64,000 nucleotides of DNA from an uncultured Chloroflexia bacterium (GTDB taxonomy: Bacteria > Chloroflexota > Limnocylindria > Limnocylindrales > CSP1-4): the NCBI GenBank assembly GCA_963755995.1, contig CAVWLQ010000002.1, forward strand, positions 129,612 through 193,611, written 5' to 3'. Positions within the stretch are counted from its first letter, which is position 1, and each line of letters begins with the position of its first letter. Below are positions 7,414 to 31,788 of the stretch, one piece after another. A program made the position numbers and the translations under genes. The notes under the pieces were generated by a model. That model searched no databases and was not told where the DNA came from. It saw only the letters and a program-made list of their open reading frames with translations.

Positions 7414-7420
7414 CCGACGG

Positions 7421-10258: not shown

Positions 10259-11375
10259 CTAGTTGCCGCCCTCCTTGAGGGTGATGGTCTGCTTGGCGAA
10301 GCTGGCGCCCTTGGTGTCGACCGAGGTGCCGAGCGCGTCGAGCGCCTTCTGGGCGAGGTCCGTGCGGGTCGCGTCCGCCGACGGGGCGGCCTTCAGGACC
10401 TTGTAGGTCGTGGCGATGTCGATGGTCTGGTCGTAGAGGGTCTTGTCGAGGAGGCCGATCCCGGCCGGGGACGGCCAGATCAGCGCGTTGATCTCGTTCA
10501 TCTGCCAGGCCTGGTGGCTGGCGCCCAGCTGGGAGCCCTTGGCGAGCACGATGTCGACGCACTTCTGGGCGTTGTCGCGGCAGTAGATCCAGCCCTTGAA
10601 CGTTCCCTGCAGGAACTTGGCCGCGATGTCGGCGTTGTTGCCGGTCTTGAGCCACTTGTCGGTGGCGAAGATCTGGTCCTGGAGCATGGCCGTGCCGACG
10701 GCCGGGTCGTTGAAGTCGATGACGTTGAGGTCCTCCGGCTTGTACAGCTCGCCGGTGGCCGGGTTCTTGGCCTCCAGGACCTGGGCGTACTCGTTGTAGA
10801 TCATGGCCTGCGCCACGTCGAGATCGCCCTTGAGCAGCCCCGACATGTCGAAGTTCTGCTTGATGACGTTCTCCTTGGTCGGATCGAGCGACGCCTTGGT
10901 CAACGCGGCGAACAGCTCGGGCTCGTTGCCACCGAGCCAGGATGCCGATCTTCTTGCCCGCCATCTGGGCCGGCGTGGTGATGTTGGCGGTCTTGAAGCC
11001 CGCCATCCGGGTGCCGGAGCGCTGGAAGATCTGGGCGATCGAGACCAGGTCCGTGCCACCCTCGCGCGACTGGAGCATGTTCGGCAGCCACGCCGTCCCG
11101 ATGTCGGCGCCGCCCGTCGCGACGACCTGGACGTTGTTGATGTTCGGGCCGCCGAGCAGCAGCTGCACATCGAGGCCGAGGTCCTGGTAGTAGCCCTGAT
11201 CGACCGCTGCGTAGTAGCCCGCGAACTGCGACTGGGCGACCCATTGGAGCTGGAACTTCACCGGCGTCAGCACGGCGAGCGAGGCACCGCCCGATGCACC
11301 GCCGCCGCTCGAGCTGCACGCCGCCAGGATGACCGCCGCGATCGCGGTGGCCAGCATCTTCCGAGGGAGTCTCAT
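10259..11375 (-). pseudogene. ABC transporter substrate-binding lipoprotein, NMT1/THI5 (SsuA/TauA/ThiY) family; frameshift near 10935-10945
   Basis: N-terminal part (frame of 11375) has lipobox LAAC and LAVLTPVKFQLQWVAQSQFAGYY. C-terminal part (frame of 11170) continues LGGNEPELFAALTKASL... The two halves are only compatible with a 1-nt indel. Confidence 0.7.
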
Positions 11376-13066: not shown

Positions 13067-13111
13067 GATCGCCTGGTCCGCGCGGTCGCCGCCCGTTGTC
13101 CGGCTCGGTGG

Positions 13112-14059
13112 TCACAGGAGTCCCTCCACCGGCCGGTAGCGTCCCCGCGTCAGGATCCGCTCGGCCAGGTTGACGATGCCCACGAAGACGAAGCCCACGA
13201 GGGTGCACATGACGATCGTCGCCCACAGACGCTCCGGGCCGGACGTGTAGTACTGGTTGTAGTTGATGATGGCGCTGCCGAGTCCCGAGGCGACGCCCGC
13301 CGTCTGCTCGCCGATGATCGCGCCGATGACCGATGCCGCGGCGGCCACCCGGAAGCCCGAGAACAGGTACGGCACCGAGGTCGGCAGGCGCAGCTGCCAG
13401 AGCACCTGTCGCCGGGTCGCGGCATACGACCGGAACAGCTCGAGGGCACGCGGGTCGAAGGCGCGCAGACCCCGCATCGAGGCGATCGTCACCGGGAAGA
13501 ACGTCAGGTACGTGGCGACCGCCATCACCGACAGCCAGTCGGCCTTGAGGGCGACCACGACGAGCGGCGCGATCGCGAGGATCGGCACGGTCTGCGATGC
13601 GACGACGTATGGCACGAAGGCGCGCTCCGCGAGGCGCGAGTGGACGAAGACGATGCCCAGCGCGAGGCCGAGGATCCCGCCCAGGGCGAAGCCCGCCAAC
13701 GCCTCACCGAACGTGAATGCCGCCTGGCCGGCCAGGACGGCGCCCAGAGGCGCGCCGCCCCGCTGGGCCGGGTCGACGAACGCCCGCGCGATGTCCCAGA
13801 CGTGAGGCAGCGACAGATCGTCCGTGATGCGCCAGGCGAACGGGGGCAGGTGCTCGTAGTCGATCTGCACGCCGGCCACGGTGCCGTGCAGCCGCCATGG
13901 GTCGCCGCCGAGCCACTTGGCGATCTCCCAGATCACCAGGAAGGCGACGAGGACGAGCGCGATGCCGGCCCAGCGCCGCGGCCGCGACCGCGCGCCGGCC
14001 CGCGGGGCGACCGCCGCGGGCGCCGAGCCGCGCCGGAGAAAGCCGCTGGCGGTCGTCAC
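13112..14059 (-). CDS. ABC transporter permease (second membrane component)
   Basis: TM helices plus the EAA-like loop ELFRSYAATRRQVLWQLRLPTSVPYLFSGFRVA. Confidence 0.85.
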   Translation of the reverse strand: MTTASGFLRRGSAPAAVAPRAGARSRPRRWAGIALVLVAFLVIWEIAKWLGGDPWRLHGTVAGVQIDYEHLPPFAWRITDDLSLPHVWDIARAFVDPAQRGGAPLGAVLAGQAAFTFGEALAGFALGGILGLALGIVFVHSRLAERAFVPYVVASQTVPILAIAPLVVVALKADWLSVMAVATYLTFFPVTIASMRGLRAFDPRALELFRSYAATRRQVLWQLRLPTSVPYLFSGFRVAAAASVIGAIIGEQTAGVASGLGSAIINYNQYYTSGPERLWATIVMCTLVGFVFVGIVNLAERILTRGRYRPVEGLL

Positions 14060-15417
14060 GTCGGTCCGTCGAGCCTCCGGCTCAGACGACCACCGCGTCG
14101 GCGATGTCGAGGGCGCGGTCGAGGATCTCGAAGCCCTCGGCGAGCTGATCCTCGGTGATGCACAGGGGCGGGTTGGTGTGGATCGAGTTGTTGGCGATCA
14201 TCGTGTACAGCCCGTTCTCGCGCAGGAACGTGCCGATCGCCTTCATCTCGTCCGACGTGCCGTTGAACGGCGTCAGCGGCGTCCACGGATCGCGGCTGCG
14301 CACGAGGTCGATGATCCCGAACAGGCCGAGGCTGCGCGTCGCGCCGACGCTCGGGTGGTTCGCCGCCAGCCGCTCGTGGTGGCCGCGCAGGACCGGCCCG
14401 AGCCGGGCGGCATTCTCGATCAGGCCGTCCTCCTCGTAGACGGCGATCGTCGCCAGGGAGGCCGCCAGGCTGACCGGATGGCTGCTGTAGGTCAGCCCGC
14501 CGTAGAACATCTGGGTCTCGAACTTCTCGGCGATCTCGTGGCGCATCGCCACCGCACCGAGCGGCAGGTACGAGCTGGTCAGGCCCTTGGCCATCGTCAT
14601 GAGATCCGGCGTGACGTCCCAGTGGTCGACCGCGAACCAGCGCCCGGTGCGCCCGAAACCGGCCATGACCTCGTCGGCGACCATCAGGATGTCGTTGCGC
14701 GTGCAGATCTCGCGAACGCCCGCGATGTAGCCGTCCGGTGGGATCAGGATCCCATTGGTCCCGACGATCGTCTCGAGGAAGACCGCCGCGATGTTCTTCG
14801 CGCCTTCGTAGCGGATCACGTCCTCGAGGCCCTGCAGGCTCTCGGCCACGGGTCGCGGCTCCGCCTCGCCCCAGCGGTGCGTGTCCGGGTAGCGGACCAC
14901 GCCGACGATGCCCGGCTCGTTGGCCCAGCGGCGCGGGTCGCCGGTCAGCGTCATGGCGCCCATGGTCGCGCCGTGGTACGAGCGGTAGCGGGCCAGGATC
15001 TTGTGGCGGCCGGTCGCGTGCCGGGCGAGCTTGATCGCGTTCTCGACCGCCTCCGCGCCACCGAGCGTGAAGAAGACCTTGTCCATGTCGCCCGGCAGGA
15101 TCTCGGCCAGCTTGGCCCCGAGCCGTCGCCCGGATCTCCGTCGCGAAGGCCGGCTGGACGTACTGGAGCTTCGTCGCCTGGGCCGTGATCGCGTCGATGA
15201 CCCGGCGGTCGCCGTGGCCGATGTTGACCGACATGAGCTGGCTGTTGAAGTCGAGGATCCGCCGGCCCTCGGGGGTGTACAGGTAGACGCCTTCGGCGTG
15301 GTCGATCGCGATCGGGTCGAGGGCACCCTGGATGGACCACGAGAAGAACGTGTGCTCACGCGCGAGCGCGACGATCTCCTCGCTGGTCATGGCGCCGGAT
15401 GCGGTCGTGATGCCCAT
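14056..15417 (-). pseudogene. Class-III (omega) aminotransferase, beta-alanine/taurine--pyruvate aminotransferase-like; frameshift near 15110-15130
   Basis: N-terminal part in the frame of 15417 (FFSWSIQGALDPIAIDHAEGVYLYTPEGRRILDFNSQLMSVNIGHGD). Remainder in the frame of 15359 (FFTLGGAEAVENAIKLARHATGRHKIL...DEVMAGFGRTGRWFA). Confidence 0.8.
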
Positions 15418-17416: not shown

Positions 17417-17473
17417 GACCGCGAGCATAGCCGCGCCCGGCGGCGCCGGTCGCTGCCCTGCCATCATCGGCCC

Positions 17474-17989
17474 ATGCGCAGCCGACGAGGTCCCTCCCGG
17501 CGTTTGATCGTCGCCGCCGGCGTCGTCGCGCTCCTCGTCGTCGGGCTCGTCCGCGCGTGGGACGATTCGCGACAGGTGTCGGACGGCGACGGCTGGCAGC
17601 TCCTCGCCCACCAGCGCGCCATCGGCGAGCGGAACGGGGTGGACTTGATCCGCGATCAGGCCGCGTTCGACGTCGCGTGGAAGCGGCTGCTCCTCCGCAC
17701 CGATCCGCCACGCGTGGACTTCGACCGCTCGGTCGTGGCGCTGCTGACCCCGCTGGGAACGATCGCCTGCCCGACCCGCCTGGATCGGGTCCGGTTCGAT
17801 CCGGACGGGCACCACGTCGACGGGCAGTTCTCGCTCGGGCTCACGCTGGGCTGCGGCAGCCCACCGGTCAGCGACACGTTCCTCGTCGCGCTCGACCGGG
17901 ATCGACTGCCCGCAGCGCCGTACCAGGTGCGGATCCTCGGTCCGGACCCGGGCGACGCCGTCACCGGTCAGCTCGACCAGGGGGAGTGA
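17474..17989 (+). CDS. Hypothetical membrane-anchored/secreted protein (171 aa)
   Basis: ATG at 17474 gives MRSRRGPSRRLIVAAGVVALLVVGLVRAW (signal anchor) then a globular domain. Divergent from the permease gene across a 45-bp spacer. Confidence 0.5.
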   Translation: MRSRRGPSRRLIVAAGVVALLVVGLVRAWDDSRQVSDGDGWQLLAHQRAIGERNGVDLIRDQAAFDVAWKRLLLRTDPPRVDFDRSVVALLTPLGTIACPTRLDRVRFDPDGHHVDGQFSLGLTLGCGSPPVSDTFLVALDRDRLPAAPYQVRILGPDPGDAVTGQLDQGE

Positions 17990-18275
17990 CGGTGACGCAC
18001 GGGGCGATGATGCCCGGGGACCGCTCCCCGGCGCTTTTTCCCGATCCACGCTAGACTGCGCTCCGCCAACGACCCCCAGGACACACGGGAACCCGGAAAA
18101 CACGAACAACGCCCCGTTCGCACGGCTCCCCCTGAGCCATTTCCGGCTACGTCCCTTTCGTGTCGGCACCCCCCTCCAGAACCCACCCGGGTTCGCCATG
18201 TCCTTCCGTGCGTGCCCGTGGGCGTCACCGCCCGCCGCGTCCCCCAACGCGGCGTCCCGGCAGGAAGGAGCACCA

Positions 18276-18773
18276 TTGCGCACGCTACATCTGGGCGCAC
18301 GAGCGTTCATCCCGGTCGCCCTCGCGGCGGCTGTCCTCTTCAGCGTCGCCCCCTCGACACCCGCGGCGGCCACCTCCGCGACGGAGGCCCAGCAGATCGT
18401 CCGGATCGCCCGGGCCCAGCTCGGTGACCGCTGGCACTACGGCGCGACCGGCCCGCGATCGTTCGATTGCTCCGGCCTCGTGGTCTACGCGTTCCGGAAG
18501 GCGGGCGATGCCCGAGCCATCCACACCGGGTTCCTGCGGTCGGCCCGATCGATCTACCGCTGGTTCAAGGCCCACGGCAAGGCCAGCCGGACCAACCCGC
18601 GCGTCGGCGACCTCGTCATCTGGGGCGGAGGCACGCACATCGGCATCTACATCGGCCGCGGCAAGGCGATCAGCACCTTGCGCAACGGCGTGCACATCCA
18701 CGGCGTCCACGCCGTGAGCGCCCGGTTCACGGCCTACCTGCACACGGGGATGTCGACCAAACCCGCGCGCTGA
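18276..18773 (+). CDS. NlpC/P60 (C40) family secreted peptidoglycan peptidase
   Basis: SD GGAAGGAG then TTG 18276. Signal peptide. Catalytic Cys context FDCSGLVVYAF and His GTHIGIYIG. Confidence 0.75.
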   Translation: MRTLHLGARAFIPVALAAAVLFSVAPSTPAAATSATEAQQIVRIARAQLGDRWHYGATGPRSFDCSGLVVYAFRKAGDARAIHTGFLRSARSIYRWFKAHGKASRTNPRVGDLVIWGGGTHIGIYIGRGKAISTLRNGVHIHGVHAVSARFTAYLHTGMSTKPAR

Positions 18774-18852: not shown

Positions 18853-20274
18853 CTATCCGGCGCCGTCCACCGCCGCGGCGCAGGCGAGGATCGCGGCGGC
18901 CGACCGATCGATGTCGTCCTCGGTCGTGGACCAGCCCGAGACCGAGACCCGCATCGCGGCATGACCGGCCCACGTCGTCCCGCCGAGGAAGAGCGTGCCG
19001 TCGCGCTGGACGGCGTCGATGACGGCGCGCGTCCGGACATCGCCGGCCTCGGCGGGCTCGCCCGCCTGCCCCTCGAAGCGGACGAGGACCTGGTTGAGCA
19101 CCACGTCGTTCAGGATCGCCACCCGCGGCCCCTCGCCCAGCCGCTCGGCCATCCGGCGGGCGAGTGCGCAGTCGCGCTCGATCAGCGCGACGAGGCCGGA
19201 CCGGCCCATCGAACGGAGGGCGGCGAGCACCGCAAACCCGCGGGCGCGACGCGACGACTCCGGCACCCAGTTGTACGGATCGCGCTCGGCCCCCGCCGTC
19301 TCGACGTAGTAGGCGGCGCCCAGGGTCATCGCGGCATGGTGGGCATCGGCGTCGCGCACGAACACGAGGCCGGAGTCGTACGGCACGTTGAGCCACTTGT
19401 GCGCATCGGTCGACCACGAATCGGCGCCCGTGTGACCGCGCATCTGCGACCGGAGCGAGGGCACCGCCGCCGCCCAGATCCCGAAGGCGCCGTCGACGTG
19501 CAGCCACGCGCCGTGCTCATGGGCGATGGCCACGATCTCCTCGAACGGGTCGAACGCCCCGCTGTTCACGTTGCCGGCCTGGGCGCACACGATGGTCGGC
19601 CCGTCGAGGCCCGCGAGCACCTCGCGCAGCGCGTCGGGTCGCATCCGGCCCTGCTCATCGCTGGCGATCCGGCGGACGCCCGTTCCCTCACGGCCCAGCC
19701 CGAGCATCTGGAGCGACGCGTAGACGGTGACGTGCGTGCCCTCGTGGGTCACGACGGTCACGTGCGGAGCACCCTGCAGCCCCTGGCGCTCGACGTCCCA
19801 GCCGAGCTTCGCCAGCACCGCGTGCCGAGCCGCCGCAAGCGCGGTGAAGTTGGCCATCGTGGCGCCGGTCACGAACCCGACGCTCGTGCCCGCCGGCAGC
19901 TCGAGCAGGTCCACCAGCCAGCCGCCGGCGATCTCCTCCGCGACGGCCGCCGCGGGCGACAGGATGTACAGGCCGGCGTTCTGGTCCCACGTGCTGGCCA
20001 GCCAATCGGCCGCGAGCGCCGCAGGCAGCCCGCCACCGACGACGAAGCCGAAGTAGCGCGGCCCGGCGCTCGCGACGAGCCCGGCGTCGGCCGTCGCGGC
20101 CAGCGATTCGACCACCGCCAGCGGGTCCGTCGGGCCGTCCGGGAGCGGACCGCCCATCGCGCTTCGGATCTCGGCAACATCGACCGGGCGCCCGACGGGT
20201 CGTGTCTCGAGGCCCGCCAGGTACGCGGCGGCGATCTCGGCCGTGCGGGCCAGCAATGCGGCTTGATCGGTCAT
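18853..20274 (-). CDS. PLP-dependent group II amino-acid decarboxylase (glutamate/aromatic-L-amino-acid/aspartate-1-decarboxylase PanP-like)
   Basis: 473 aa, PLP-Lys motif STDAHKWLNVPYDSG. Full length and uninterrupted. Confidence 0.85.
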   Translation of the reverse strand: MTDQAALLARTAEIAAAYLAGLETRPVGRPVDVAEIRSAMGGPLPDGPTDPLAVVESLAATADAGLVASAGPRYFGFVVGGGLPAALAADWLASTWDQNAGLYILSPAAAVAEEIAGGWLVDLLELPAGTSVGFVTGATMANFTALAAARHAVLAKLGWDVERQGLQGAPHVTVVTHEGTHVTVYASLQMLGLGREGTGVRRIASDEQGRMRPDALREVLAGLDGPTIVCAQAGNVNSGAFDPFEEIVAIAHEHGAWLHVDGAFGIWAAAVPSLRSQMRGHTGADSWSTDAHKWLNVPYDSGLVFVRDADAHHAAMTLGAAYYVETAGAERDPYNWVPESSRRARGFAVLAALRSMGRSGLVALIERDCALARRMAERLGEGPRVAILNDVVLNQVLVRFEGQAGEPAEAGDVRTRAVIDAVQRDGTLFLGGTTWAGHAAMRVSVSGWSTTEDDIDRSAAAILACAAAVDGAG

Positions 20275-20362
20275 CGGTCCCCTCCTCGTCCCGGCTCGGC
20301 CGAGTCGCGACCTCGTTGGCTCCTGATGCTACCGTGAGCGCAGCCGCGACGAGGACGCTCCG

Positions 20363-20755
20363 ATGGACCACCGTGCCTTCCAATCCTGGCTCGACCGCTA
20401 CATCGATGCCTGGCGACTGCTCGATCCGCTGGCCATCGGCGACCTGTTCAGTCCCGACGTGCGTTACGCCTTCGATCCGTTCAGCGAGGCCGTCGTGGGG
20501 CGCGCGGCGGTCGTCGCGGCCTGGCTGGCCGAGCCCGACGCGCCGGGGTCCTGGGAGGCCGACTACGAGGTCCTCGCCATCGACGGTGACGCCTGCGTCG
20601 CCCACGGCCGGACCCGCTACCTGACCGACGACCGGACCGCGATCGACCGCGAGTTCGCGAATGTCTTCGTGTGCCGGTTCGACGACGACGGCCGATGTCG
20701 CGAGTTCACCGAGTGGTACATGCGAAAGAGACCGGAAGCAATCCCCGACGAATAG
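20363..20755 (+). CDS. SnoaL-like / NTF2-like superfamily protein
   Basis: 130-aa alpha+beta fold signature (WLDRYIDAWR...DVRY...FANVFVCRFDDDGRCREFTEWY). Confidence 0.7.
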   Translation: MDHRAFQSWLDRYIDAWRLLDPLAIGDLFSPDVRYAFDPFSEAVVGRAAVVAAWLAEPDAPGSWEADYEVLAIDGDACVAHGRTRYLTDDRTAIDREFANVFVCRFDDDGRCREFTEWYMRKRPEAIPDE

Positions 20756-20842
20756 GGCGGGCCGCGAGCGATCGGGGGCCGTTCGGAGGTGTACCCTCTG
20801 GCCTCTTCGACCAACCGATACGCGAGCGAGGTGACGCCCGAC

Positions 20843-21694
<852 letters not shown>

Positions 21695-21715
21695 TTCGCG
21701 CTACCATCCCTCGGG

Positions 21716-21743
21716 CTCGACCGTCTGGAGGAGGACGGTCGAG
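21716..21743 (+). terminator. Strong 10-12-bp stem-loop (CTCGACCGTC-tggaggag-GACGGTCGAG) 22 nt after the amidohydrolase stop; terminator or attenuator
   Basis: Perfect inverted repeat seen in the sequence, extendable by GG/CC. No U-tract. Confidence 0.35.
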
Positions 21744-21773
21744 CCGCTTCATTCCCGGCCGGAGGCACGCGCC

Positions 21774-22766
21774 ATGCAGTTCGGCTTCACGCTCAAGCCC
21801 GAGCACACGCTCGAGCGGACGCTGGCCTTGACGCGTCAGGCGGAGGCCGCCGGGTTCGAGTACGGCTGGCTGTTCGACTCGCACGTCCTGTGGCGCGACC
21901 CGTACCCGCTCCTGACGTTGATGGCCGGCGTGACCGAGCGGATGCGCCTCGGGACCTGCGTGACCAACCCGGGCACCCGCGAGCCGACCGTCACGGCGTC
22001 CGTGCTGGCCACCCTCGACGAGATCTCGGGCGGCCGGATGGATCTCGGCATCGGGCGTGGCGACTCGGCCCGGCGCGTCCTCGGCAAGCCGCCGATCACG
22101 ATGGCCAACACGGAGGAGGCGATCCGGGTCATCCGGGCGCTGGTGGCCGGCGAGACGATCGAGTACGAGGGCACGGAGCTGAGCTTCCCGTGGACGACGG
22201 GCTGGACCCTCCCGGTCTGGGTCGCGGGCTACGGGCCGATGGCCCTGGCCATGACCGGCCGGGTCGCGGACGGGCTCATCCTCCAGCTCGGCGATCCGGA
22301 CCTCATCCGCTGGCTCGTCGGCCAGGTCCGCGAGGCCGCCACGGCCGCCGGCCGGGATCCCGCCGCGATCCGCGTGCAGGCTGCCGCGCCGGCCCACGTC
22401 GGCGACATCGCCCTCGGCCGGGAGCGCACCCGGTGGTTCCCGGCGCTGGTCAGCAACCACGTCGTCGACCTGGTCAACAAGTACCCGCGCGAACAGCTGC
22501 CCGAGGCGCTGACCGGGTACGTCTCGGACCGGTCCGGCTACGACTACCACCACCACGCGGAGGTCGGCTCCGCCAACGCGTCGTTCGTCGGGGACGACGT
22601 CACGGACCGGTTCTGCATCCTCGGCGGCGTCGACGACCACGTCGCGAAGCTGCGCGAGCTGGCGGCCGCCGGCGTCGACCAGTTCAACCTGTACCTGATG
22701 AACGGCGACGAGGAAGCGCAGCTGGAGGCCTACGGCCGCGACGTCATCCCGGCCGTCCGCGCCTGA
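21774..22766 (+). CDS. Luciferase-like monooxygenase (LLM) family flavin/F420-dependent oxidoreductase
   Basis: 330-aa TIM-barrel LLM signature (MQFGFTLKPEH...GWLFDSHVLW...LGIGRGDS...GYGPMALAMTGRVADGLIL). Confidence 0.85.
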   Translation: MQFGFTLKPEHTLERTLALTRQAEAAGFEYGWLFDSHVLWRDPYPLLTLMAGVTERMRLGTCVTNPGTREPTVTASVLATLDEISGGRMDLGIGRGDSARRVLGKPPITMANTEEAIRVIRALVAGETIEYEGTELSFPWTTGWTLPVWVAGYGPMALAMTGRVADGLILQLGDPDLIRWLVGQVREAATAAGRDPAAIRVQAAAPAHVGDIALGRERTRWFPALVSNHVVDLVNKYPREQLPEALTGYVSDRSGYDYHHHAEVGSANASFVGDDVTDRFCILGGVDDHVAKLRELAAAGVDQFNLYLMNGDEEAQLEAYGRDVIPAVRA

Positions 22767-22824
22767 CCCGGTCCATCTGCCGCGACCCATTAGCCCGGAG
22801 GTCAGGCTGGCGCCGGCCCGGTCC

Positions 22825-23091
22825 GTGCCTGACGATGAGACCGCATCCGGCGACCGGCTCGCGCGTGGAGAAGAGCGACGGTCGGATCGATGTGGAGGCA
22901 TGGAGATGATCGGTCGACGCCATCGCGATCCCTGGTGGGGCGATGAGGGCAGGGGCGCCAAGCGCACCCGCCGTCGCACCCAGGTCGAGAGCCTGATCGC
23001 CCTGGCCCTGGCCATCGGCGCATGCGGTCTGGCCGCCGCCGTGTGGCTCCGCCAGCTGGCTCCCCTCGCCAACCAGCTCGGCCTCAGCTGA
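22825..23091 (+). CDS. Hypothetical small protein with one TM helix (LIALALAIGACGLAAAVWL)
   Basis: ORF only; sits between the LLM and cupin genes in the same orientation. Confidence 0.3.
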   Translation: MPDDETASGDRLARGEERRSDRCGGMEMIGRRHRDPWWGDEGRGAKRTRRRTQVESLIALALAIGACGLAAAVWLRQLAPLANQLGLS

Positions 23092-23140
23092 CCCGTTCGC
23101 CGGTCTACCATCGGCGGTCAGGGATCGTCGGAGGAGGACG

Positions 23141-23578
23141 GTGATGGATGTTCCCGAGGACTCGCGCCCGGCGGTCGCCACGAACATGGGCCGACCGGGC
23201 TGGACGCTTCTGGCGTCGAGCGGCGTCACGAACGGCGCCTTCGAGCTCTTCCAGGAAGTCAGGGCGACGCTCGGCGGCCCACCCGCGCACGTCCACCGTG
23301 AGCGCGACGAGGCCTTCTACGTGGTCGAGGGTCGGTATGCCTTCACGCGCGACCACGACGAGCTCGTGCTCGAGCCGGGTGGCTTCATCTTCATCCCGCG
23401 TGGGACGCGCCACCGGTACCGGACGCTGGATGCGCCCGCCCGGACGCTGATCCTCATCGTCCCCGCCGGGCTCGAGGGGTTCTTCCGCGAGATGGGCGCG
23501 CGGATCGGCGGTGGCGCATCCGCCCTGGAGGCGATGACCGCCCTCGCGGCGACCTATGATTCCCATCCGGTGGATTGA
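23141..23578 (+). CDS. Cupin domain protein
   Basis: SD GGAGGAGGA before ATG 23141. Cupin motifs HVHRERDEAFYVVEG and GGFIFIPRGTRHRY. Confidence 0.65.
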   Translation: MMDVPEDSRPAVATNMGRPGWTLLASSGVTNGAFELFQEVRATLGGPPAHVHRERDEAFYVVEGRYAFTRDHDELVLEPGGFIFIPRGTRHRYRTLDAPARTLILIVPAGLEGFFREMGARIGGGASALEAMTALAATYDSHPVD

Positions 23579-23618
23579 CACAGTCGGCGAGGATCGATCC
23601 ATCGCGCAGGAGGGACCG

Positions 23619-25014
23619 ATGCGCACGCTGATCACCAACGGGACCATCGTCGGCGCCGACGGCTCGACCGCCGCCGACGTGCTGATCGACGGCGAGACGA
23701 TCGCCCTCATCGGACGGGACCTGGCGGTGACGGTGACCGCCGACGAGACCATCGACGCGACCGGCAAGTACGTGATCCCGGGCGGCATCGACGTCCATAC
23801 CCACATGGAGCTGCCGTTCGGGGGCACGTTCGCCAAGGATACGTTCGAGAGCGGGACGCGCGCCGCTGCCTTCGGCGGGACGACCTCGATCGTGGACTTC
23901 GCCGTCCAGTCGCGTGGCGCCTCGCTGCGCCAGGGTCTCGACGCCTGGCACGCCAAGGCCGAAGGCAATGCCGTCGCCGACTACGGCTTCCACATGATCA
24001 TGAGCGACGTCAACGACGCGACCCTGGCCGAGATGGACGGCCTGGTCGCCGAGGGCGTCCCCGACTTCAAGCTGTTCACGGCCTACCCGGGCGTCTTCTA
24101 CAGCGACGACGGCGCGATCTTCCGGGCGATGCAGCAGACCGCCAAGAACGGCGGGCTGATCATGATGCACGCCGAGAACGGCATGGCCATCGACGTCGTC
24201 GCCGAGCAGACCGTCGCCGCCGGCACGACCGACCCGATCGGGCACGGCCTGGCCCGCAAGGCCGTCTTCGAAGGCGAGGCGACCAACCGGGTGATCCGCC
24301 TGGCCGAAGCCGCCGGGGTCCCCGTCTACATCGTCCACCTCTCCGCGCGGGAGGCCCTGGCCGAGGTCCGGGCGGCCCGCGACCGCGGCGCCAAGGCCTT
24401 CGCCGAGACGTGCCCGCAGTACCTGTTCCTGTCGCTGGACGACCTCGGGCACGGCTTCGACGGGCGCGAAGTTCGTGTGCTCGCCGCCGCTCCGCTCGAA
24501 GGACCAGTGGGAGGACATCTGGTCGGGGCTCGTGACCGACGACCTCCAGATCGTCTCGACCGATCACTGCCCGTTCGACTTCCACGGCCAGAAGGAGCTC
24601 GGCAAGGACGACTTCCGCAAGATCCCGAACGGCCTGCCGGGCGTCGAGGACCGGCTCGACCTGCTCCACGACGGGGGCGTGGTGGCCGGCCGGATCAGTC
24701 GCGAGCGCTGGGTCGAGATCGTGTCCACGGCGCCGGCCCGCATGTTCGGGATGTACCCGCGCAAGGGTGCGGTTGCCATCGGGTCCGACGCCGACCTCGT
24801 CATCTACGACCCGGCACGCAAGCACAAGATCTCCGCAAAGACCCACCACATGGACGTCGACTACTCGTGCTACGAGGGCCGGACCGTCCAGGGCGGCAGC
24901 GACGTCGTGCTGAGCCGCGGCTCGGTGATCGTGCGCGACGGCACGTTCACGGGCCGGAAGGGCCACGGCACGTTCATCCGGCGCGCACCGGCCGACCACG
25001 CCCGGCTGGCCTGA
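23619..25014 (+). pseudogene. Dihydropyrimidinase / D-hydantoinase (cyclic amidohydrolase); frameshift near 24465-24475 (extra G in GACGGGCGCG)
   Basis: N-terminus MRTLITNGTIV...GGIDVHTHMELPFGG in the frame of 23556. C-terminus (VCSPPLRSKDQWEDIWSGL...STDHCPF) in the frame of 24475. Confidence 0.8.
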
Positions 25015-25021
25015 CCGAGCG

Positions 25022-25954
25022 ATGGGCGGCCTGGACGACGGCCGGATCGTCGTCCTCGACGGCGGACTCGCGACCGAGCTCGAGGCGCGCGGGCACGACC
25101 TGTCCGACCGGCTCTGGTCGGCACGTCTGCTGCTGACGGAACCGGACGCGATCGAGGACGTCCATCTCGACTACTTCCGCGCCGGAGCGACGGTCGCCAC
25201 GACGGCCAGCTACCAGGCGACGGTCCCCGGCTTCGCGGCGGCCGGCCTCGACCGGGCGGCCGCCCTCGGTGCCATCCGCGAGAGCGTGACGCTCGCCCAG
25301 CGCGCTCGCGACCGGTACGCCGCGGAGGCCGGCCCTGCCGCCACCGACCTGCTCGTCGCCGGGTCCGTCGGACCGTACGGCGCGATGCTGGCCGACGGCT
25401 CCGAGTACCGCGGCGACTACGATCCGGGTGAGACCGCGCTCCGCGAGGTCCACGCGCCGCGGATCGAGGCGCTGCTGGACGCCGGCGTCGACCTGCTCGC
25501 GTTCGAGACGATCCCGACCGTCCGCGAGGCGGAGGTCCTGGTGAGACTGCTCGACACGTTCGACGCGCGGGCCTGGCTGAGCTATTCATGCCGCGACGGT
25601 TCGTCGACCTCGGCCGGCGAACCGGTCGAGACGGCGATCGCCATGGGCGAGGCGCCCGGGATGGTGGCCGTGGGCATCAACTGCACCGCGCCGCGTTTCC
25701 TGCCGGACCTGTTGGGCGCCGCGTACGGTGCCACGACCCGCCCGCTGCTGGCCTACCCGAACGGCGGGGATCGGTGGGATGCGCCGTCACGGCGGTGGCT
25801 GGCGGACGACGGCGGCTCGTTCGATCCGGCGGTCGTCGCCGGGTGGACGGCCCTGGGCGCGACCTGGCTGGGCGGCTGCTGCGGCACCGGACCGGCCGAG
25901 ATCGCCCGGCTTGCAGCACGCCTGCGCACGGGGGCGACGCCGAGACCGGAATAG
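25022..25954 (+). CDS. mmuM: Homocysteine S-methyltransferase (MmuM/HMT family)
   Basis: Zn-binding GGCCGT motif near the C-terminus; Hcy-binding fold motifs (LDGGLATELE, GINCT). 8 nt downstream of the dihydropyrimidinase. Confidence 0.85.
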   Translation: MGGLDDGRIVVLDGGLATELEARGHDLSDRLWSARLLLTEPDAIEDVHLDYFRAGATVATTASYQATVPGFAAAGLDRAAALGAIRESVTLAQRARDRYAAEAGPAATDLLVAGSVGPYGAMLADGSEYRGDYDPGETALREVHAPRIEALLDAGVDLLAFETIPTVREAEVLVRLLDTFDARAWLSYSCRDGSSTSAGEPVETAIAMGEAPGMVAVGINCTAPRFLPDLLGAAYGATTRPLLAYPNGGDRWDAPSRRWLADDGGSFDPAVVAGWTALGATWLGGCCGTGPAEIARLAARLRTGATPRPE

Positions 25955-26110
25955 ATGGTGCGCCGCAGCACCATGACGCGCGCTCGGGCGTCGCCGAGCG
26001 TTGACCCGGCGCCATCGGCGAGCGTAGGCTCCGGCCATCCCACCGGCCGCATCGCGCGCCACCCGACGTGTCATCCGGCCGTCTGCCAGTTCATCGGAGG
26101 AGACCTGCGC

Positions 26111-29100
26111 ATGAGGCGGATTGCCGTCGCCCTGGCCACGCTGTGCCTGTTGGCCGGGCAGCTCATCTTCGCGGGCGTCGCGACCGGGGCCGACCCGACC
26201 CGATTCACCGCGTCACCACTGACCCCCGACACGACCTTCGTCGGAGCCAAGTCAACGTCCGGAGCGATCGCCGAGAACGATCCAGCGCTCCTCGGCAGGA
26301 CCGACTCGACACCGGTCAACGTGATGATCAAGTACGACTACGACGTGGCCGCCTCCTACACCGGCGGCGTCGACGGTCTCGCCGCGACAAGCCCGCGCAA
26401 GACCGGCAAGACCCTGAAGGCGAATGCCGCAGCGGTCAAGGCCTACACCGACTACACGACCAAGCTGTCCGACAAGATCACCACGCGAGCGCAGAAGGCG
26501 GTCCCCGGCCTCAAGGTCCGCTTCGCCTACGCCGGCGCCTACGGTGGGGTCGAGGCGAGCATCCCGGCCAACCAGATCGGGGCGCTGCTCAAGACCGACG
26601 GCGTCGTCGCCGTCCAGCAGGACACCCTGCAGCAGCCGCTCGATGACAACACCGCGTTCATCGGCGCGACGAAGGTCTGGCCGTCGCTCGGCGGCTCCGC
26701 CAACGCCGGCAGCAACGTCATCGTCGGCGTCATCGACACCGGCGTCTGGCCCGAGCATCCGATGGTCGCCCCGGGCAGCCTCGGCACCGCCCCCGGTGGC
26801 GCGCGCGCCTGCCAGTTCGGCGATGGGTCGGACGTGGCCCACCTCGGCCCGGCCTTCACCTGCAACAACAAGCTCATCGGCGCCTACGCCAAGACGGCCA
26901 CCTACATGGCCACGACCGGAGCCGACGCGAACGAGTTCTGCAACAACACGACCCACCAGTGCTCCGCCCGCGACTCCGAGGGCCATGGCACGCACACCCT
27001 GACCACCGCCGCCGGCGACTGCGTCACGTCCGCCGTCCTGTACGGCGTCGAGCGCGGGCCGGTCTGCGGTATCGCTCCCGGCGCGCACGTGATCATGTAT
27101 CGCGTCTGCCTGGCCGCGGGCTGCGCCACCTCCGACTCCGTGTCGGCCGTCCAGCAGGCCATCACCGACGGCGTCGACGTCATCAACTTCTCCATCTCGG
27201 GCGGCGCCCAGCCGTACAGCGACGCCGTCGAGCTCGCGTTCCTCGATGCCGTCCATGCCGGGATCTCCGTGAATGCCTCTGCCGGCAACTCCGGCCCGGG
27301 CGCGGCGACCTCCGACCATGGCGGACCGTGGGTGACCACGGTCGGCGCCTCGACCGGACCGCGCGAGTTCGGCTCGGTCCTCCACCTCACGGCCGATGGC
27401 GGCGCGTCGCTCGACATCCCGGGCATCACCCTCACGGCGGGCATCTCGAGCCCGACCCCGGTGGTGATGGCCCAGACCTTGCCGGGCGAGGACGCCCTGT
27501 GCCAGTCGACCCTTGCCGCGGGCACGGCGACAGGCAAGATCGTCGCCTGCCAGCGGGGCGTGAACGGCCGCATCGACAAGGGCCGCCGGGTCCTCGCCGG
27601 CGGCGCCGCCGGGATGATCCTGTACAACCCGGTCAAGCAGGACCAGGAGAGCGACAACCACTACCTGCCCGCGATCCACATCGACGGGCCCAGCGCGCCG
27701 TTCACGACCTTCGTCACGACCCATACCAATGTGAAGGCCACCTGGGCGCAGGGGGTCGCACAGCCGGGGCAGGCCGACATGATGGCGGCCTTCTCCTCCC
27801 GCGGTCCGCTCGGCGACTGGATCAAGCCTGACATCACCGCCCCAGGCGTCCAGGTCCTCGCCGGGACGACGCCGCAGCCCGACCAGACCACGGCCGACAA
27901 CGGCCCGGTCGGGAACCTCTATATGGCCATCGCGGGCACCTCGATGTCGAGTCCGCACGCCGCCGGCGTGTCGGCCCTCGTCAAGGCCGCCCATCCCTCG
28001 TGGACCCCGGAACAGATCAAGTCGGCGCTCATGACCTCTTCGGTCCAGAGCGTCGTCAAGGAAGACGGCGTCACGCCGGCCACTCCGTTCGACATGGGCT
28101 CCGGGTCCATCCGGGCCGATCGAGCCGTCAACCCGACGCTCGTCTTCGATGAGACCTACAACGGCTTCGTCGCCGCCGGTGCGGATCCGATCCATCGGAT
28201 CGACCTCAACATCGCCAGCATCGACGCGACGACGATGACCGGCCAGATCACCACCAACCGCACCGCGCTCAACGTGTCCGGCAAGAACCAGTCGCTCCAC
28301 GTGTCGGTCCAGAACCCGGCCGGAGCGCGCATCGTGGTGACCAAGAACGCCCCGGGTCCGAATGGCCCGGGTGCCGGCGCCACGACCCTCAAGGTCAACA
28401 AGGGCAAGACCCTCACCTTCTGGGTCACGATCAGCGCACCGCTGGCCGCCAACGGCCAGTACTTCGGGCGCATCACCCTGACGCCGAAGACGGGCACGCC
28501 GGTGACCATCCCGGTGGCGTTCGTGAAGAAGCAGGGCGCCGTGACTCTGTCCCACAGCTGTGACCCGACGTCCTTCTCTGCCAAGACCGGCGTCAGCCAC
28601 TGCACCGCCAGCGTCTCCAACTTCGGCAGCGTGCCGGCCAACGTCGACCTGACGGTGACCCCGGAGGTCAAGGGCAGTGGCCTCCAGTACGTCAACATCG
28701 CCGCGCCGGCGACCCCGATCGGCACGAAGGACGGCGTCCACTGGAGCGGCACCCTGGCCCAGGCGACCCCGCCGAAGATCGACTCGATCACGGCGGCCCC
28801 GCACGACCAGACACCGGACGGTGGATACCTCGACCTGTCGTTGCTCGGCGTTCCGAACGTCGCCGGCGTCGGTGACGACACCATCAGCAACTTCAACGTG
28901 CCGGGCTTCTTCTATGGCGGCGAGTCGTACACCCGGATCGGCGTCGTGTCGAACGGCTACATCGTCGTCGGCGGCGGCGACAGCAGCGACATCGTCTTCA
29001 CCCCGCAGCATTTCCCGGTCGCGGCACGACCGAACAACGTCCTCGCCCTGTTGTGGACCGATCTCAATCCAGCCGGCGCCGGAGCGATCCGGGTTGCCAC

Positions 29101-29569
29101 GCTGAATGACGGCCCCGGTGGCCATACCTGGATCGTCGTCGACTGGGCCGGCGTCAAGAACTTCGGCAACGCGACGACCCACAGCTTCGAGGCCTGGATC
29201 CAGGTCGCCGGCGGCTCCGTCGGAACCGGCCCGGAAAGCGAGCAGATCACCTACTCGTACGGGGCCAACCTCACCTTCCCAGGTGACGGACCGGGCCTCG
29301 GCAACGCCGGCGTCGGCGATCCCGACTCGGGCGTCAACTGGGGTGCCGAGAACCGTGACGGTTCGAGCGGTGTGAGCATCCCGACCGCGCCGGCCAACGG
29401 CTCGGAGTTCTTTATCAACACGTCGCCTCCCGCCGCCGGTGGGACGCAGACGATCACGTTCGACCTCAAGGGCACCAAGACCGGCGCCTTCGACTCGGTC
29501 GCCGAGATGACGTCCAATATCACCCCAGGCACCACCCAGGTGGTCCAGACGGTCCACGTCACGCGCTGA
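26111..29569 (+). CDS. Secreted subtilisin-like serine protease (S8 family) with I9 propeptide, PA-like insert and about 500-aa C-terminal beta-rich extension
   Basis: Signal peptide MRRIAVALATLCLLAGQLIFA. Catalytic Asp VGVIDTGVWPEHP, His HGTHTLTTAAG, Ser GTSMSSPHAAGVSALV. 1152 aa uninterrupted. Confidence 0.85.
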   Translation: MRRIAVALATLCLLAGQLIFAGVATGADPTRFTASPLTPDTTFVGAKSTSGAIAENDPALLGRTDSTPVNVMIKYDYDVAASYTGGVDGLAATSPRKTGKTLKANAAAVKAYTDYTTKLSDKITTRAQKAVPGLKVRFAYAGAYGGVEASIPANQIGALLKTDGVVAVQQDTLQQPLDDNTAFIGATKVWPSLGGSANAGSNVIVGVIDTGVWPEHPMVAPGSLGTAPGGARACQFGDGSDVAHLGPAFTCNNKLIGAYAKTATYMATTGADANEFCNNTTHQCSARDSEGHGTHTLTTAAGDCVTSAVLYGVERGPVCGIAPGAHVIMYRVCLAAGCATSDSVSAVQQAITDGVDVINFSISGGAQPYSDAVELAFLDAVHAGISVNASAGNSGPGAATSDHGGPWVTTVGASTGPREFGSVLHLTADGGASLDIPGITLTAGISSPTPVVMAQTLPGEDALCQSTLAAGTATGKIVACQRGVNGRIDKGRRVLAGGAAGMILYNPVKQDQESDNHYLPAIHIDGPSAPFTTFVTTHTNVKATWAQGVAQPGQADMMAAFSSRGPLGDWIKPDITAPGVQVLAGTTPQPDQTTADNGPVGNLYMAIAGTSMSSPHAAGVSALVKAAHPSWTPEQIKSALMTSSVQSVVKEDGVTPATPFDMGSGSIRADRAVNPTLVFDETYNGFVAAGADPIHRIDLNIASIDATTMTGQITTNRTALNVSGKNQSLHVSVQNPAGARIVVTKNAPGPNGPGAGATTLKVNKGKTLTFWVTISAPLAANGQYFGRITLTPKTGTPVTIPVAFVKKQGAVTLSHSCDPTSFSAKTGVSHCTASVSNFGSVPANVDLTVTPEVKGSGLQYVNIAAPATPIGTKDGVHWSGTLAQATPPKIDSITAAPHDQTPDGGYLDLSLLGVPNVAGVGDDTISNFNVPGFFYGGESYTRIGVVSNGYIVVGGGDSSDIVFTPQHFPVAARPNNVLALLWTDLNPAGAGAIRVATLNDGPGGHTWIVVDWAGVKNFGNATTHSFEAWIQVAGGSVGTGPESEQITYSYGANLTFPGDGPGLGNAGVGDPDSGVNWGAENRDGSSGVSIPTAPANGSEFFINTSPPAAGGTQTITFDLKGTKTGAFDSVAEMTSNITPGTTQVVQTVHVTR

Positions 29570-29604
29570 CACGGGGCCCGAAAGGGGCCACACGCATGAA
29601 CGAA

Positions 29605-29643
29605 GGAGTCGCCCGACGGGGCGACTCCTTCTTCCTTTCTTGA
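29605..29643 (+). terminator. Rho-independent terminator: GGAGTCGCCC-gacg-GGGCGACTCC followed by TTCTTCCTTTCTT
   Basis: Perfect 10-bp hairpin plus T-rich tract about 36 nt after the protease stop, between convergent genes. Confidence 0.5.
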
Positions 29644-29690
29644 GGCCAGCTTCTGAAAAAGTCTGTGCCCGGGCGGGCCGCCCGGCTCGG

Positions 29691-30119
29691 TCAGACGGTT
29701 TCGGGGCGCCGGGCGAAGATCCGGATGCCCGCGAGGACGATCGCTTCCACGAGAGTCCAGGCGATGAGCGCCACGAGGGCCGCGATGTCGAACACGGAGC
29801 CCTGGTCGGCGGTCACGCGGTTGAGCGAGAACATGCCGAGGAACGGCTCGACGAACGGCTGGGTCACGTTGAAGATGAGCTGGACGACGTCGTTGCCGGG
29901 GTTCGCGACGAGCAGCAGGAGGACGATCCGGAGGATCAGGAGGACCTGCAGGATCCCGAACGCGAAGGTCACGATCCGTGCGGCAAGCGTCGCGCCGCCG
30001 GGTCCGGCCGGCGAATAGGCGGTATCCGTCGTCCGGACGCTCGTCACGGCGGGCGCCGGGGCGACGGACGGGTCGACGGTCTGGGTCTCGCGGGTGGTCG
30101 TTGTCTGATAGTCGGTCAT
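29691..30119 (-). CDS. YggT-family small integral membrane protein
   Basis: C-terminal TM repeat with the ...TQPFVEPF...DIAALVALIAWTL pattern typical of YggT/Ycf19. 142 aa. Confidence 0.5.
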   Translation of the reverse strand: MTDYQTTTTRETQTVDPSVAPAPAVTSVRTTDTAYSPAGPGGATLAARIVTFAFGILQVLLILRIVLLLLVANPGNDVVQLIFNVTQPFVEPFLGMFSLNRVTADQGSVFDIAALVALIAWTLVEAIVLAGIRIFARRPETV

Positions 30120-30245: not shown

Positions 30246-31788
30246 TTAGCGGGTGCGCGGGAAGCCGAGATCGATCTTGCTGGTGCCCGGATCCGGCCAG
30301 CGTGACGTCACGATCTTGGCCCGTGTGTAGAACTGGACGCCCTCGGGCCCGTACATGTGCAGGTCGCCGAACAGGGAGTTCTTCCAGCCACCGAAGCTGT
30401 AGTACGCGACCGGCACCGGGATGGGCACGTTGATCCCGACCATCCCCGCCTCGACCTCGAACTGGAACTGGCGCGCGGCGCCGCCATCCCGGGTGAAGAT
30501 CGCCGTGCCGTTGCCGTACGGGTTGTCGTTGACCAGCCGAACCGCCTCCTCGTAGGTCGTGACCCGCATGACGGTGAGGACCGGCCCGAAGATCTCGTCC
30601 TTGTAGGCATCCATCGCCGGCGTGACGTGGTCGATGAGCGAGACGCCCAGGAAGAAGCCGTCCGACTCGTCGTAGAGCGGGTGCTGGCGACCGTCGGTGA
30701 CGACCGTGGCGCCCTGGGCGGGGCCGCTGTCGAGGTACGACGCGACCTTGTCGCGATGCTGCTTCGTGACCAGCGGTCCCATCTCCGAGGCCGGGTCGCT
30801 GCCCGGTCCGACGGTGATCCCCGGCAGGCGCGCCCGGATCGCCTCCACGAGCGGGTCCGCGACGTCGCCCACGGCCACGATCGTGGCGACGGCCATGCAG
30901 CGCTCGCCGGCGGAGCCGTAGCCGGCCGAGACCGCCGCGTCCGCCGCCATCTCGATGTCCGCGTCCGGCAGGACGATCATGTGGTTCTTGGCGCCGCCCA
31001 GGGCCTGGACCCGCTTGCCGGCGGCCGTGCCGGTCTCGTAGATGTAGCGCGCGATCGGCGTGGACCCGACGAACGAGATCGCGGCGATGTCCGGATGCGC
31101 GAGGATCGCGTCGACCGCGACCTTGTCGCCGTGGACGACGTTGAAGACACCGGCCGGGACGCCGGCCTCGTCCAGCAGCTCGGCCAGGTAGTTGGCCGCG
31201 GACGGGTCCTTCTCGGACGGCTTGAGGATGAACGTGTTGCCGCGTCGCGATGGCCGTCGCGAACATCCACATCGGGACCATCGCCGGGAAGTTGAAGGGC
31301 GTGATCCCGGCCACGACCCCGAGCGGCTGGCGGATCTGGTAGACGTCGACCCCGCCCGACACCTGCTCGGAGAAGCCGCCCTTGAGCAGGCTCGGGATGC
31401 CGCACGCGAACTCGAGGTTCTCGAGACCCCGGGCGATCTCGCCCAGGGCGTCCGATGGGACCTTGCCGTGCTCCGCGGTCAGCAGTGCGGCGATGTCCGT
31501 CCGGTGCGCCTCGACCAGGTTCCGGATCCTGAACATGATGTCGGTGCGCTTGGAGAGCGACGTCGCGCGCCAGGCCGGGAATGCCGCCTTGGCCGCCGCG
31601 ACGGCCGCGTCGACGTCCGCGCTCGACGCGAAGTCGACGTGCTTGGTCAGGCGACCGGTGGCCGGATCGTAGACCGGCCCTTCCCGGGTCGCGGTCCCGA
31701 CCACGGTCCGCCCGCCGATCCAATGGCTGATCCGGCCGGGCTCGGGCGCATCGGCGCGGCTGGCGTTGGGCGCTTCGACCTGTGTCAT
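30246..31788 (-). pseudogene. mmsA: Methylmalonate-/malonate-semialdehyde dehydrogenase (CoA-acylating, ALDH family); frameshift near 31250-31260
   Basis: N-terminal part in the frame of 31902 up to ...ITPFNFPAMVPMWMFATAIA. Remainder (GNTFILKPSEKDP...MIVLPDADIEMAAD...) in the frame of 30980. Catalytic Cys context in the C-terminal part. Start at Met MTQVEAPN. Confidence 0.8.

Follow-up and report, generated by a model that had tools for sequence, protein, structure and literature searches.

Background

Uracil and thymine catabolism by the reductive (Pyd) route begins with PydA/PreTA, and the variants of PydA known so far differ only in the electron donor, NAD(P)H or ferredoxin, and not in fold (PMC7332683). 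In bacteria, PydA commonly lies within ten open reading frames (ORFs) of PydB, with 3419 such cases (PMC7332683); since that survey began from PydA, it could not have revealed a replacement of this enzyme by a luciferase-like (LLM) oxidoreductase. A putative F420-dependent LLM has been proposed, on bioinformatic grounds, to replace the DPD-like 'yanthine' reductase in the reductive uric-acid clusters of Chloroflexota (PMC12507026). In Streptomyces, SSGG-03002 and NpsU, putative F420/FMN oxidoreductases of mureidomycin/napsamycin biosynthesis, are genetically required for reduction of the uracil C5=C6 bond; activity in vitro was not obtained, and their fold family was not stated (PMC10714638). 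The current work concerns a 64-kb stretch of DNA from an uncultured Chloroflexia bacterium, referred to below as the window, in which a gene for an LLM oxidoreductase of family TIGR03842 is located among predicted genes of pyrimidine catabolism.

The window carries all of the genes for uracil and thymine breakdown save the usual first enzyme, and a predicted F420-dependent enzyme is found in its place. Judged from its gene content and from the recurrence of the same linkage in distant bacteria, the cluster probably serves reductive uracil/thymine catabolism in which PydA/PreTA has been replaced by the F420H2-dependent LLM.

Probable pyrimidine catabolic genes in the window

The window, with a GC content of about 71%, was mapped by third-position GC frame plot together with Pfam and NCBIfam scans. 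The genes assigned to the pathway are:

14056..15417, minus strand: class-III aminotransferase of the beta-alanine/omega-amino acid type (PF00202), with one frameshift at about 15125
20789..21694, plus strand: CN-hydrolase of the nitrilase superfamily (PF00795, 218 bits)
21774..22766, plus strand: LLM oxidoreductase (PF00296, 212 bits; TIGR03842)
23619..25014, plus strand: dihydropyrimidinase (PydB), frameshifted at 24462 (TIGR02033 fragments of 320 and 233 bits)
30246..31788, minus strand: CoA-acylating methylmalonate/malonate-semialdehyde dehydrogenase (MmsA, MMSDH), frameshifted at 31243 (PF00171)

An initial annotation, made from the letters of the window, had placed the dihydropyrimidinase, the CN-hydrolase, the LLM and a cupin in one co-directional run, with the aminotransferase, mmsA and a group II decarboxylase nearby. 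The Pfam and NCBIfam scans agree with these identities and positions, and the decarboxylase is found on the minus strand, divergent from the run. Four frameshifts, the true start of the dihydropyrimidinase (23619) and a 61-aa ORF had been missed.

The same annotation had also noted the absence of any PreT/PreA- or PydA-like gene. Indeed, tblastn with the E. coli PreT and PreA queries (E<=1e-3) gave no match in the 64-kb window, nor in the 94 related loci described below (1.52 Mb together with the window). No match was obtained in the 30-kb Leisingera island (L099) either, with the wider Paracoccus locus (L100) lying outside the search, and no DHO_dh-type gene is present among the annotated ORFs of the window.

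Family, fold and predicted cofactor of the LLM enzyme

The LLM protein is a full-length member of TIGR03842, scoring 430.5 bits against a cutoff of 295.45, with residues 2-328 aligned to positions 1-329 of the NCBIfam model. At NCBI, this family (F420_CPS_4043) is a hypothetical equivalog named 'LLM class F420-dependent oxidoreductase', and neither a function nor a biological process is assigned to it. At least 590 GTDB species carry the family, whose scored candidates fall into more than 7,900 clusters at 90% identity. The protein falls under the cutoffs of the models for Mer, the F420-dependent 5,10-methylene-tetrahydromethanopterin reductase of methanogens (PRK02271, 156 bits vs 276; TIGR03555, 140 bits vs 349). 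FMN-dependent LLM models of NCBIfam reach at most 45 bits, and RutA is outside the best 25 of the 30 NCBIfam matches.

No solved structure was found for TIGR03842, and the nearest solved protein is Mer, at 128 bits. The AF2 model of the LLM has a pLDDT of 90.5 and a pTM of 0.89. When it was compared with the PDB by Foldseek, the top 18 matches were all F420-dependent LLMs (Mer, FGD2, FGD1 and Adf; TM 0.75-0.82), and FMN-dependent monooxygenases were ranked lower. The N-terminal half aligns with Mer through the motifs DSH, GxCVTNP and SGGR...GIGRGD; in Mer, this half is the part that binds F420. Residues from about 207 to 265 have no counterpart in Mer and include positions that are near-invariant across the TIGR03842 clades: R220, W221, F222, N228, H229, R253, Y256, D257, Y258 and H261. 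Within this segment, residues 251-270 have low pLDDT in the model and may form a mobile substrate lid.

Relatives with 47-48% identity are the last cistron of the cofG-cofH-cofD-cofC-cofE-npdG operon in Paracoccus and Leisingera. Because the best NCBIfam and PDB matches are all F420 enzymes, and because these relatives sit in F420-biosynthesis operons with Fno, the cofactor of the LLM is predicted to be F420 and not FMN. The initial annotation had called the enzyme an F420/FMN oxidoreductase and had drawn a parallel with RutA; the prediction agrees with the F420 part of this description and not with the FMN part, and the RutA analogy proved not useful.

Linkage of LLM and dihydropyrimidinase within Limnocylindria

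The LLM alignment was scanned against one genome per GTDB species, and the nearest 80 loci of the at least 590 matching species were retrieved. Almost all of them come from Chloroflexota, for the most part from Candidatus Limnocylindria/Limnocylindrales, with many 'MFD' metagenome-assembled genomes among them. The window is therefore from Chloroflexota and not, as its GC content of about 71% might suggest, of actinomycete origin. Gene counts given here and below refer to the 39 Limnocylindria loci of at least 18 kb.

A CN-hydrolase is found directly upstream of the LLM on the same strand in 38 of the 39 loci, and a dihydropyrimidinase is present on the same strand in 35. The aminotransferase also accompanies the LLM in 35/39 loci, the aldehyde dehydrogenase in about 19, and the ABC ATPase in 28, the components of the ABC transporter being found in 25-28 loci. 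When the ORFs of 83 loci were all clustered de novo, no conserved redox partner besides the LLM emerged. The unlabelled ORF clusters resemble, by eye and by the Pfam labels of the corresponding genes, Lgt, a UbiA-GT2 fusion, a PP2C-type phosphatase, PEP carboxykinase, a diacylglycerol-kinase-like protein and NTP_transf_5. The content between LLM and dihydropyrimidinase varies, and may be a cupin, the UbiA-GT2 fusion or a 749-aa protein.

Linkage in other clades

Because the Limnocylindria loci share ancestry, distant members of the family were chosen beyond this class and were reached through 50%-identity representatives and a plasmid collection. The identity of the LLM between clades is 42-63%. 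The arrangements are as follows, with the identity of each LLM to that of the window:

Acidimicrobiia (Aquihabitans sp. G128 and lake metagenome-assembled genomes), 45%: operon CN-hydrolase-dihydropyrimidinase-MMSDH-LLM and, at a distance of 1-2 kb, an aminotransferase of PRK06062
Streptomyces sp. BHT-5-2 and S. rimosus, 49% (BHT-5-2): CN-hydrolase-aminotransferase, two unrelated genes and dihydropyrimidinase, with the LLM start 12-36 nt later (the first two genes were examined in BHT-5-2 alone)
Gaiellaceae-like Actinomycetota, 49%: permease-ATPase-permease-NMT1 binding protein-dihydropyrimidinase, divergent from M20 amidase (TIGR01879)-MFS-LLM
Leisingera plasmids (Alphaproteobacteria), 47%: cofG-cofH-cofD-cofC-cofE-npdG(Fno)-LLM, divergent from pntA-pntB-AptA-type aminotransferase-M20 amidase-hydA-NCS1 nucleobase symporter

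The link of LLM, dihydropyrimidinase, carbamoyl-amidase and aminotransferase thus recurs in five deep clades of three phyla with shuffled gene order, and no oxidoreductase other than the LLM remains with the dihydropyrimidinase in every clade. That LLM and dihydropyrimidinase are paired in three phyla makes it probable that the LLM is a uracil reductase of a kind not recognised before. The initial annotation had named it as the candidate for a non-orthologous uracil/thymine reductase and had pointed to comparative genomics of this adjacency; the proposal gains strong support from the recurrence in Limnocylindria and four further clades.

In the Gaiellaceae-like loci L092, L093, L097 and L098, the PydC slot is occupied by the non-homologous M20/TIGR01879 amidase instead of a CN-hydrolase. 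The NMT1-type ABC transporter is located in one operon with the dihydropyrimidinase in this clade, which supports a role of that transporter type in pyrimidine uptake. Locus L096 stops at the LLM, and the contig of protein P0122 spans only 2 kb.

The Leisingera island lies at 155000-172000 of Leisingera caerulea plasmid NZ_CP081074.1. All 10 of the 10 LLM-bearing Leisingera plasmids contain hydA, about 11-12 kb from the LLM in the records compared, suggesting that in Leisingera the entire F420 cofactor pathway travels with pyrimidine catabolism. Outside the proteobacteria, tblastn with the Leisingera CofC/D/E/G/H, NpdG, PntAB and NCS1 queries gave no match in the loci, that is, none for F420 biosynthesis, Fno, PntAB or NCS1.

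Two further genes were also observed near these clusters. The cof/LLM region is flanked by a small DUF1330 gene in Paracoccus (L088/L100, 14083-14373) as well as in Leisingera (L099, 16287-16580). In the lake Acidimicrobiia (L085/L086, 5217-5684), a PNPOx_N-family gene, possibly F420/FMN-binding and FDOR-like, is located two genes upstream of the CN-hydrolase-dihydropyrimidinase-MMSDH-LLM operon, and it was not seen in other clades.

Downstream enzymes and transporter

The remaining steps of the pathway were assessed with intact orthologs where the genes of the window are split. The intact dihydropyrimidinase of the closest relative (L087) scores 576 bits with TIGR02033, against a cutoff of 393, and its intact MMSDH scores 718 bits with TIGR01722, against a cutoff of 448. 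An intact ortholog of the aminotransferase reaches 519 bits with PRK06062, above the cutoff, and the neighbouring aminotransferase of the Acidimicrobiia belongs to the same subfamily (745 bits). The genes for disposal of beta-alanine and beta-aminoisobutyrate, aminotransferase and MMSDH, are both in the window, and both are frameshifted there.

For the CN-hydrolase, the nearest solved structures are N-carbamoylputrescine amidase (207 bits), Drosophila beta-alanine synthase (185 bits) and human beta-ureidopropionase (175 bits), and D-carbamoylases score only 79-96 bits. With the aguB model it reaches 265 bits, against a cutoff of 410. It is a putative N-carbamoyl-beta-alanine amidohydrolase (beta-ureidopropionase, the PydC function), and its orthologs in the Acidimicrobiia and Streptomyces clusters are 68-73% identical to it. 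The NMT1-type ABC transporter of the window is a candidate pyrimidine uptake system; transporters of this type also adjoin LLM and dihydropyrimidinase in the Gaiellaceae-like loci, and the LLM in Paracoccus.

Proposed pathway

A nucleobase transporter, the LLM, dihydropyrimidinase, carbamoyl-amidase, aminotransferase and MMSDH would make up a complete pathway once the LLM takes the first step. Pyrimidines would be imported, possibly by the NMT1-type ABC transporter. In the next step, C6 of the pyrimidine ring would receive a hydride from F420H2 through the LLM, with C5 protonated by an acid in the active site, so that 5,6-dihydrouracil or dihydrothymine would form. F420H2 donates hydride obligately and its potential is close to that of NADPH, which makes direct hydride transfer to uracil C6, with protonation at C5, chemically reasonable. 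The dihydropyrimidinase, by its family membership, would open the ring, and the CN-hydrolase, a clear family member whose substrate is predicted, would release beta-alanine or beta-aminoisobutyrate with NH3 and CO2. The class-III aminotransferase would produce malonate or methylmalonate semialdehyde, and MmsA, again by family membership, would convert the semialdehyde to acetyl- or propionyl-CoA. F420H2 would be regenerated by Fno or Fgd encoded elsewhere in the genome, the window having a gene for neither. In Leisingera, electrons from NAD(P)H may reach F420H2 by way of PntAB and Fno, and the LLM would pass them on to uracil.

On balance, it also appears likely that TIGR03842 represents a widespread and so far unrecognised class of dihydropyrimidine dehydrogenase, made up of single-subunit, iron-sulfur-free, F420H2-dependent uracil/thymine reductases. 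In much of Chloroflexota and Actinomycetota, Streptomyces among them, these would catalyse the first step of pyrimidine catabolism, and in Rhodobacterales such as Leisingera a horizontally acquired F420 operon would mainly feed the LLM.

Several observations weigh against these assignments. No member of TIGR03842 is known to have been characterised biochemically or genetically, and NCBI gives the family no function. Characterised F420-dependent LLMs work on alcohols or carbonyls, or on methylene-H4MPT, and reduction of a C=C bond in a pyrimidine is not known for any characterised LLM. The search for PydA/PreTA was confined to the window and the 8-20 kb flanks of each related LLM. The supply of F420 in the organism of the window is assumed, as no F420-biosynthesis or Fno genes are present in the window or in the Chloroflexota and Actinomycetota flanks. 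In Paracoccus alcaliphilus, a NitT/TauT-type ABC transporter comes after a cof-Fno-LLM operon, and the surrounding 20 kb, in a region bordered by IS elements, are free of Pyd genes. The Gaiellaceae-like locus L094 is uninformative on the linkage. Finally, the dihydropyrimidinase, aminotransferase and MMSDH are frameshifted in the assembly, and this strain would have lost the pathway if these changes were genuine.

Alternative explanations

The alternative that survives best, although it is unlikely, is that the LLM acts at another step, for example as an F420-dependent malonate/methylmalonate-semialdehyde reductase forming 3-hydroxypropionate in the manner of PydE, RutE and YdfG, with a canonical PydA/PreTA elsewhere in the genome. 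The characterised F420-dependent LLMs Adf, Fgd and FGD2, which are structural neighbours of the LLM model, are alcohol/carbonyl oxidoreductases, and the limited range of the PydA search leaves room for such a gene. Moreover, no MMSDH is located beside the LLM in the Leisingera and Streptomyces loci, so that the semialdehyde must be disposed of otherwise there. However, in loci of Limnocylindria, Acidimicrobiia and the Gaiellaceae-like clade the LLM is accompanied by MMSDH or aldehyde dehydrogenase, in some cases within one operon, and a second disposal enzyme would be redundant. Although PydA is usually a neighbour of PydB, no PreT/PreA was found near any related locus examined, and it is the LLM that forms the most constant partner of dihydropyrimidinase in all clades.

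It is distinctly improbable that the cluster acts on a different cyclic ureide, with hyu-type conversion of 5-substituted hydantoins to D-amino acids, or with a modified pyrimidine or purine-derived ring that is reduced by the LLM. TIGR02033 enzymes are often promiscuous hydantoinases, and the CN-hydrolases include D-carbamoylases. An F420-dependent LLM has, in addition, been proposed as the 'yanthine' reductase of Chloroflexota uric-acid clusters (PMC12507026). The CN-hydrolase of the window, however, scores 175-207 bits against beta-ureidopropionases and N-carbamoylputrescine amidase, and at best 96 against D-carbamoylases. The hyu cluster, which the initial annotation had named as a refuting alternative, is disfavoured by this distance. 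Neither among the annotated window ORFs nor among the gene clusters conserved in Limnocylindria was a racemase, SsnA or Xdh found. The partners that stay constant, a beta-alanine/omega-amino acid aminotransferase and MMSDH, fit beta-alanine and beta-aminoisobutyrate, and the Leisingera cluster adds an NCS1 nucleobase symporter.

A Rut-like role, in which the LLM would be an FMN-dependent pyrimidine monooxygenase opening the uracil ring oxidatively, is very improbable. RutA does share the LLM fold, but the strong family and structural matches are all of the F420 class and the FMN-dependent models score poorly. Relatives of the enzyme are embedded in F420 biosynthesis operons with Fno, the window annotation contains no flavin reductase or RutB-G-type set, and the dihydropyrimidinase would be left without a substrate.

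That the adjacency reflects chance or inherited synteny with no functional link is hardly credible, for although the 80 loci within Limnocylindria are related and conservation there may be inherited, and although Paracoccus alcaliphilus lacks the link, it is found in five clades of three phyla with differing gene order, non-homologous amidases (CN-hydrolase vs M20) and different transporters.

Frameshifts and assembly quality

Single-base frameshifts are present in four genes of the cluster region: ABC ATPase, aminotransferase, dihydropyrimidinase and MMSDH. The dihydropyrimidinase is interrupted by a 1-nt insertion at 24462 (GGG vs GG), and the MMSDH by a 1-nt insertion at 31243. The ATPase is split over two frames, as seen by tblastn with the intact orthologs of locus L003, and the aminotransferase likewise occupies two frames. 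A penicillin amidase and a SufBD-type gene are also split (54914-57539 and 58511-59680), which brings the total to at least 6 split genes in 64 kb.

The closest relative, L087, has 93% nucleotide identity and 99% LLM protein identity to the window. Its dihydropyrimidinase (464 aa) and MMSDH (513 aa) are intact, and it has a frameshift of its own in the decarboxylase. Because at least six genes are split in 64 kb, and because L087 has the Pyd genes intact but a different frameshift, the frameshifts are probably consensus errors of long-read assembly and not gene decay; true pseudogenisation is unlikely.

Comparison with L087 also revealed larger differences. The S8 subtilase of the window represents a 3.7-kb insertion, the region 25906-29670 having no counterpart in L087. 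L087 in turn contains its own 5.4-kb insertion (3548-9011), with a BTAD regulator, an M6 peptidase and other genes, between SnoaL and CN-hydrolase. The Pyd core is kept in both while the surroundings change. In the window, a 943-aa open frame (15542-18373, minus strand) has coding-like GC3 throughout, and its only domain is a C-terminal ABC-permease; the N-terminal part is poorly conserved in relatives and matches several frames of L087. This frame may consist of several genes fused by assembly indels.

Accessory and neighbouring genes

Other genes in and around the cluster are:

10259..11170, minus strand: NMT1/THI5-like substrate-binding protein of a NitT/TauT-type ABC transporter (PF09084 NMT1)
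11473-12249, minus strand: ABC permease (PF00528)
12249-13111, minus strand: ABC ATPase, frameshifted at about 12711-12751 (PF00005)
13112-14059, minus strand: ABC permease (PF00528)
18853..20274, minus strand: group II PLP-dependent decarboxylase, divergent from the operon (PF00282, 138 bits)
20363..20755, plus strand: SnoaL_2/NTF2-like small protein, first of the co-directional run (PF12680)
22906..23091, plus strand: 61-aa ORF (tblastn conservation)
23141..23578, plus strand: Cupin_2 protein (PF07883)
25022..25954, plus strand: homocysteine S-methyltransferase, HMT (PRK09485, 354 bits)
25955..29569, plus strand: S8 subtilase with PA and fn3_6 domains (PF00082, PF02225, PF17766)
29691-30119, minus strand: YggT
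31865-32776, minus strand: Lgt

The intergenic gaps of the plus-strand run from SnoaL_2 to HMT are 33, 79, 139, 49, 40 and 7 nt.

The SnoaL-like protein, the 61-aa ORF and the decarboxylase are Limnocylindria-specific accessories. SnoaL is located directly upstream of the CN-hydrolase in 24/39 loci and the decarboxylase is present in 18/39; neither accompanies the LLM in other clades. The decarboxylase remains under every NCBIfam cutoff (DABA decarboxylase 132 bits, PanP 102 bits). The 61-aa ORF starts about 140-150 nt after the LLM stop and, by tblastn, occurs at the same relative position in about 20 Limnocylindria loci; its basic N-terminus (MIGRRHRDPWWGDEGRGAKRTRRR...) is followed by one hydrophobic helix.

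The cupin, HMT and S8 peptidase are non-conserved passengers outside the system. The cupin is found in none of the 39 loci and only in the window and L087, and the S8 peptidase in 6/39. HMT, which begins 7 nt after the stop of the dihydropyrimidinase and had been described as an odd passenger directly downstream of the hydantoinase, is indeed one, being present in 5/39 loci. Other sulfur-amino-acid genes are also present in the window: a CBS-domain PALP enzyme is encoded at 41848-43269 (minus strand), and a SAM riboswitch (RF00162, 74.8 bits) at 38331-38434 (plus strand) lies upstream of a PLP-dependent PALP-family gene (38504-39826). No riboswitch was detected within the cluster by Rfam, and no tRNAs in the window.

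Significance and comparison with known systems

If the proposed function is correct, it fills the missing first step of pyrimidine catabolism in large lineages that abound in the environment (soil Limnocylindria, Acidimicrobiia, Gaiellales and Streptomyces), and it gives a function to a very conserved family of at least 590 species. It would also assign coenzyme F420 and the LLM fold a role in central metabolism and a new type of reaction, the reduction of the pyrimidine C5=C6 bond. The retention of F420 operons in some Alphaproteobacteria would find a concrete reason, and a simple catalyst free of iron-sulfur clusters would become available for making dihydropyrimidines.

Full-text searches of the literature turned up no account of a catabolic uracil/thymine reductase that depends on F420. 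The functional assignment of TIGR03842 proposed here is new, and the rest of the pathway is the known Pyd route. The canonical pathway (PydA/PreTA, PydB, PydC) has the same downstream set, namely dihydropyrimidinase, an amidase of the CN-hydrolase or M20 type, an omega/beta-alanine aminotransferase and MMSDH. The difference is in the first enzyme: PydA/PreTA combines a DHODH-like FMN domain with Fe-S/FAD electron-transfer modules, whereas the cluster described here contains an LLM of the F420 class.

Two other pathways resemble the cluster in part. The Hyu D-hydantoinase/D-carbamoylase systems share with it a TIGR02033-type amidohydrolase and a CN-hydrolase, although the CN-hydrolase of the window is far from D-carbamoylases. 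The Rut pathway begins with RutA, of the same LLM fold, but the LLM of the window is of the F420 class, not the FMN class, and has no Rut partners.

The closest characterised homolog of the LLM is Mer (PDB 1Z69, 8QPL), with about 30% identity and a TM of 0.81. The motifs D-x-H, GxxVTNP and SGGR...GIGxGD are common to both proteins, and the segment at about 207-265 differs. SSGG-03002 and NpsU, to which the enzyme can be likened by description only, are biosynthetic and act on a uridyl-peptide, whereas a catabolic role is proposed here. The idea closest to the present one is that of the uric-acid clusters (PMC12507026), likewise in Chloroflexota, in which an F420-dependent LLM would dearomatise a uracil-type ring ahead of an amidohydrolase. 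Those clusters are defined by SsnA, XdhD and HyuA and degrade a purine, and the likeness of their LLM to that of the window is one of description only; the cluster analysed here would apply the same principle to uracil and thymine.

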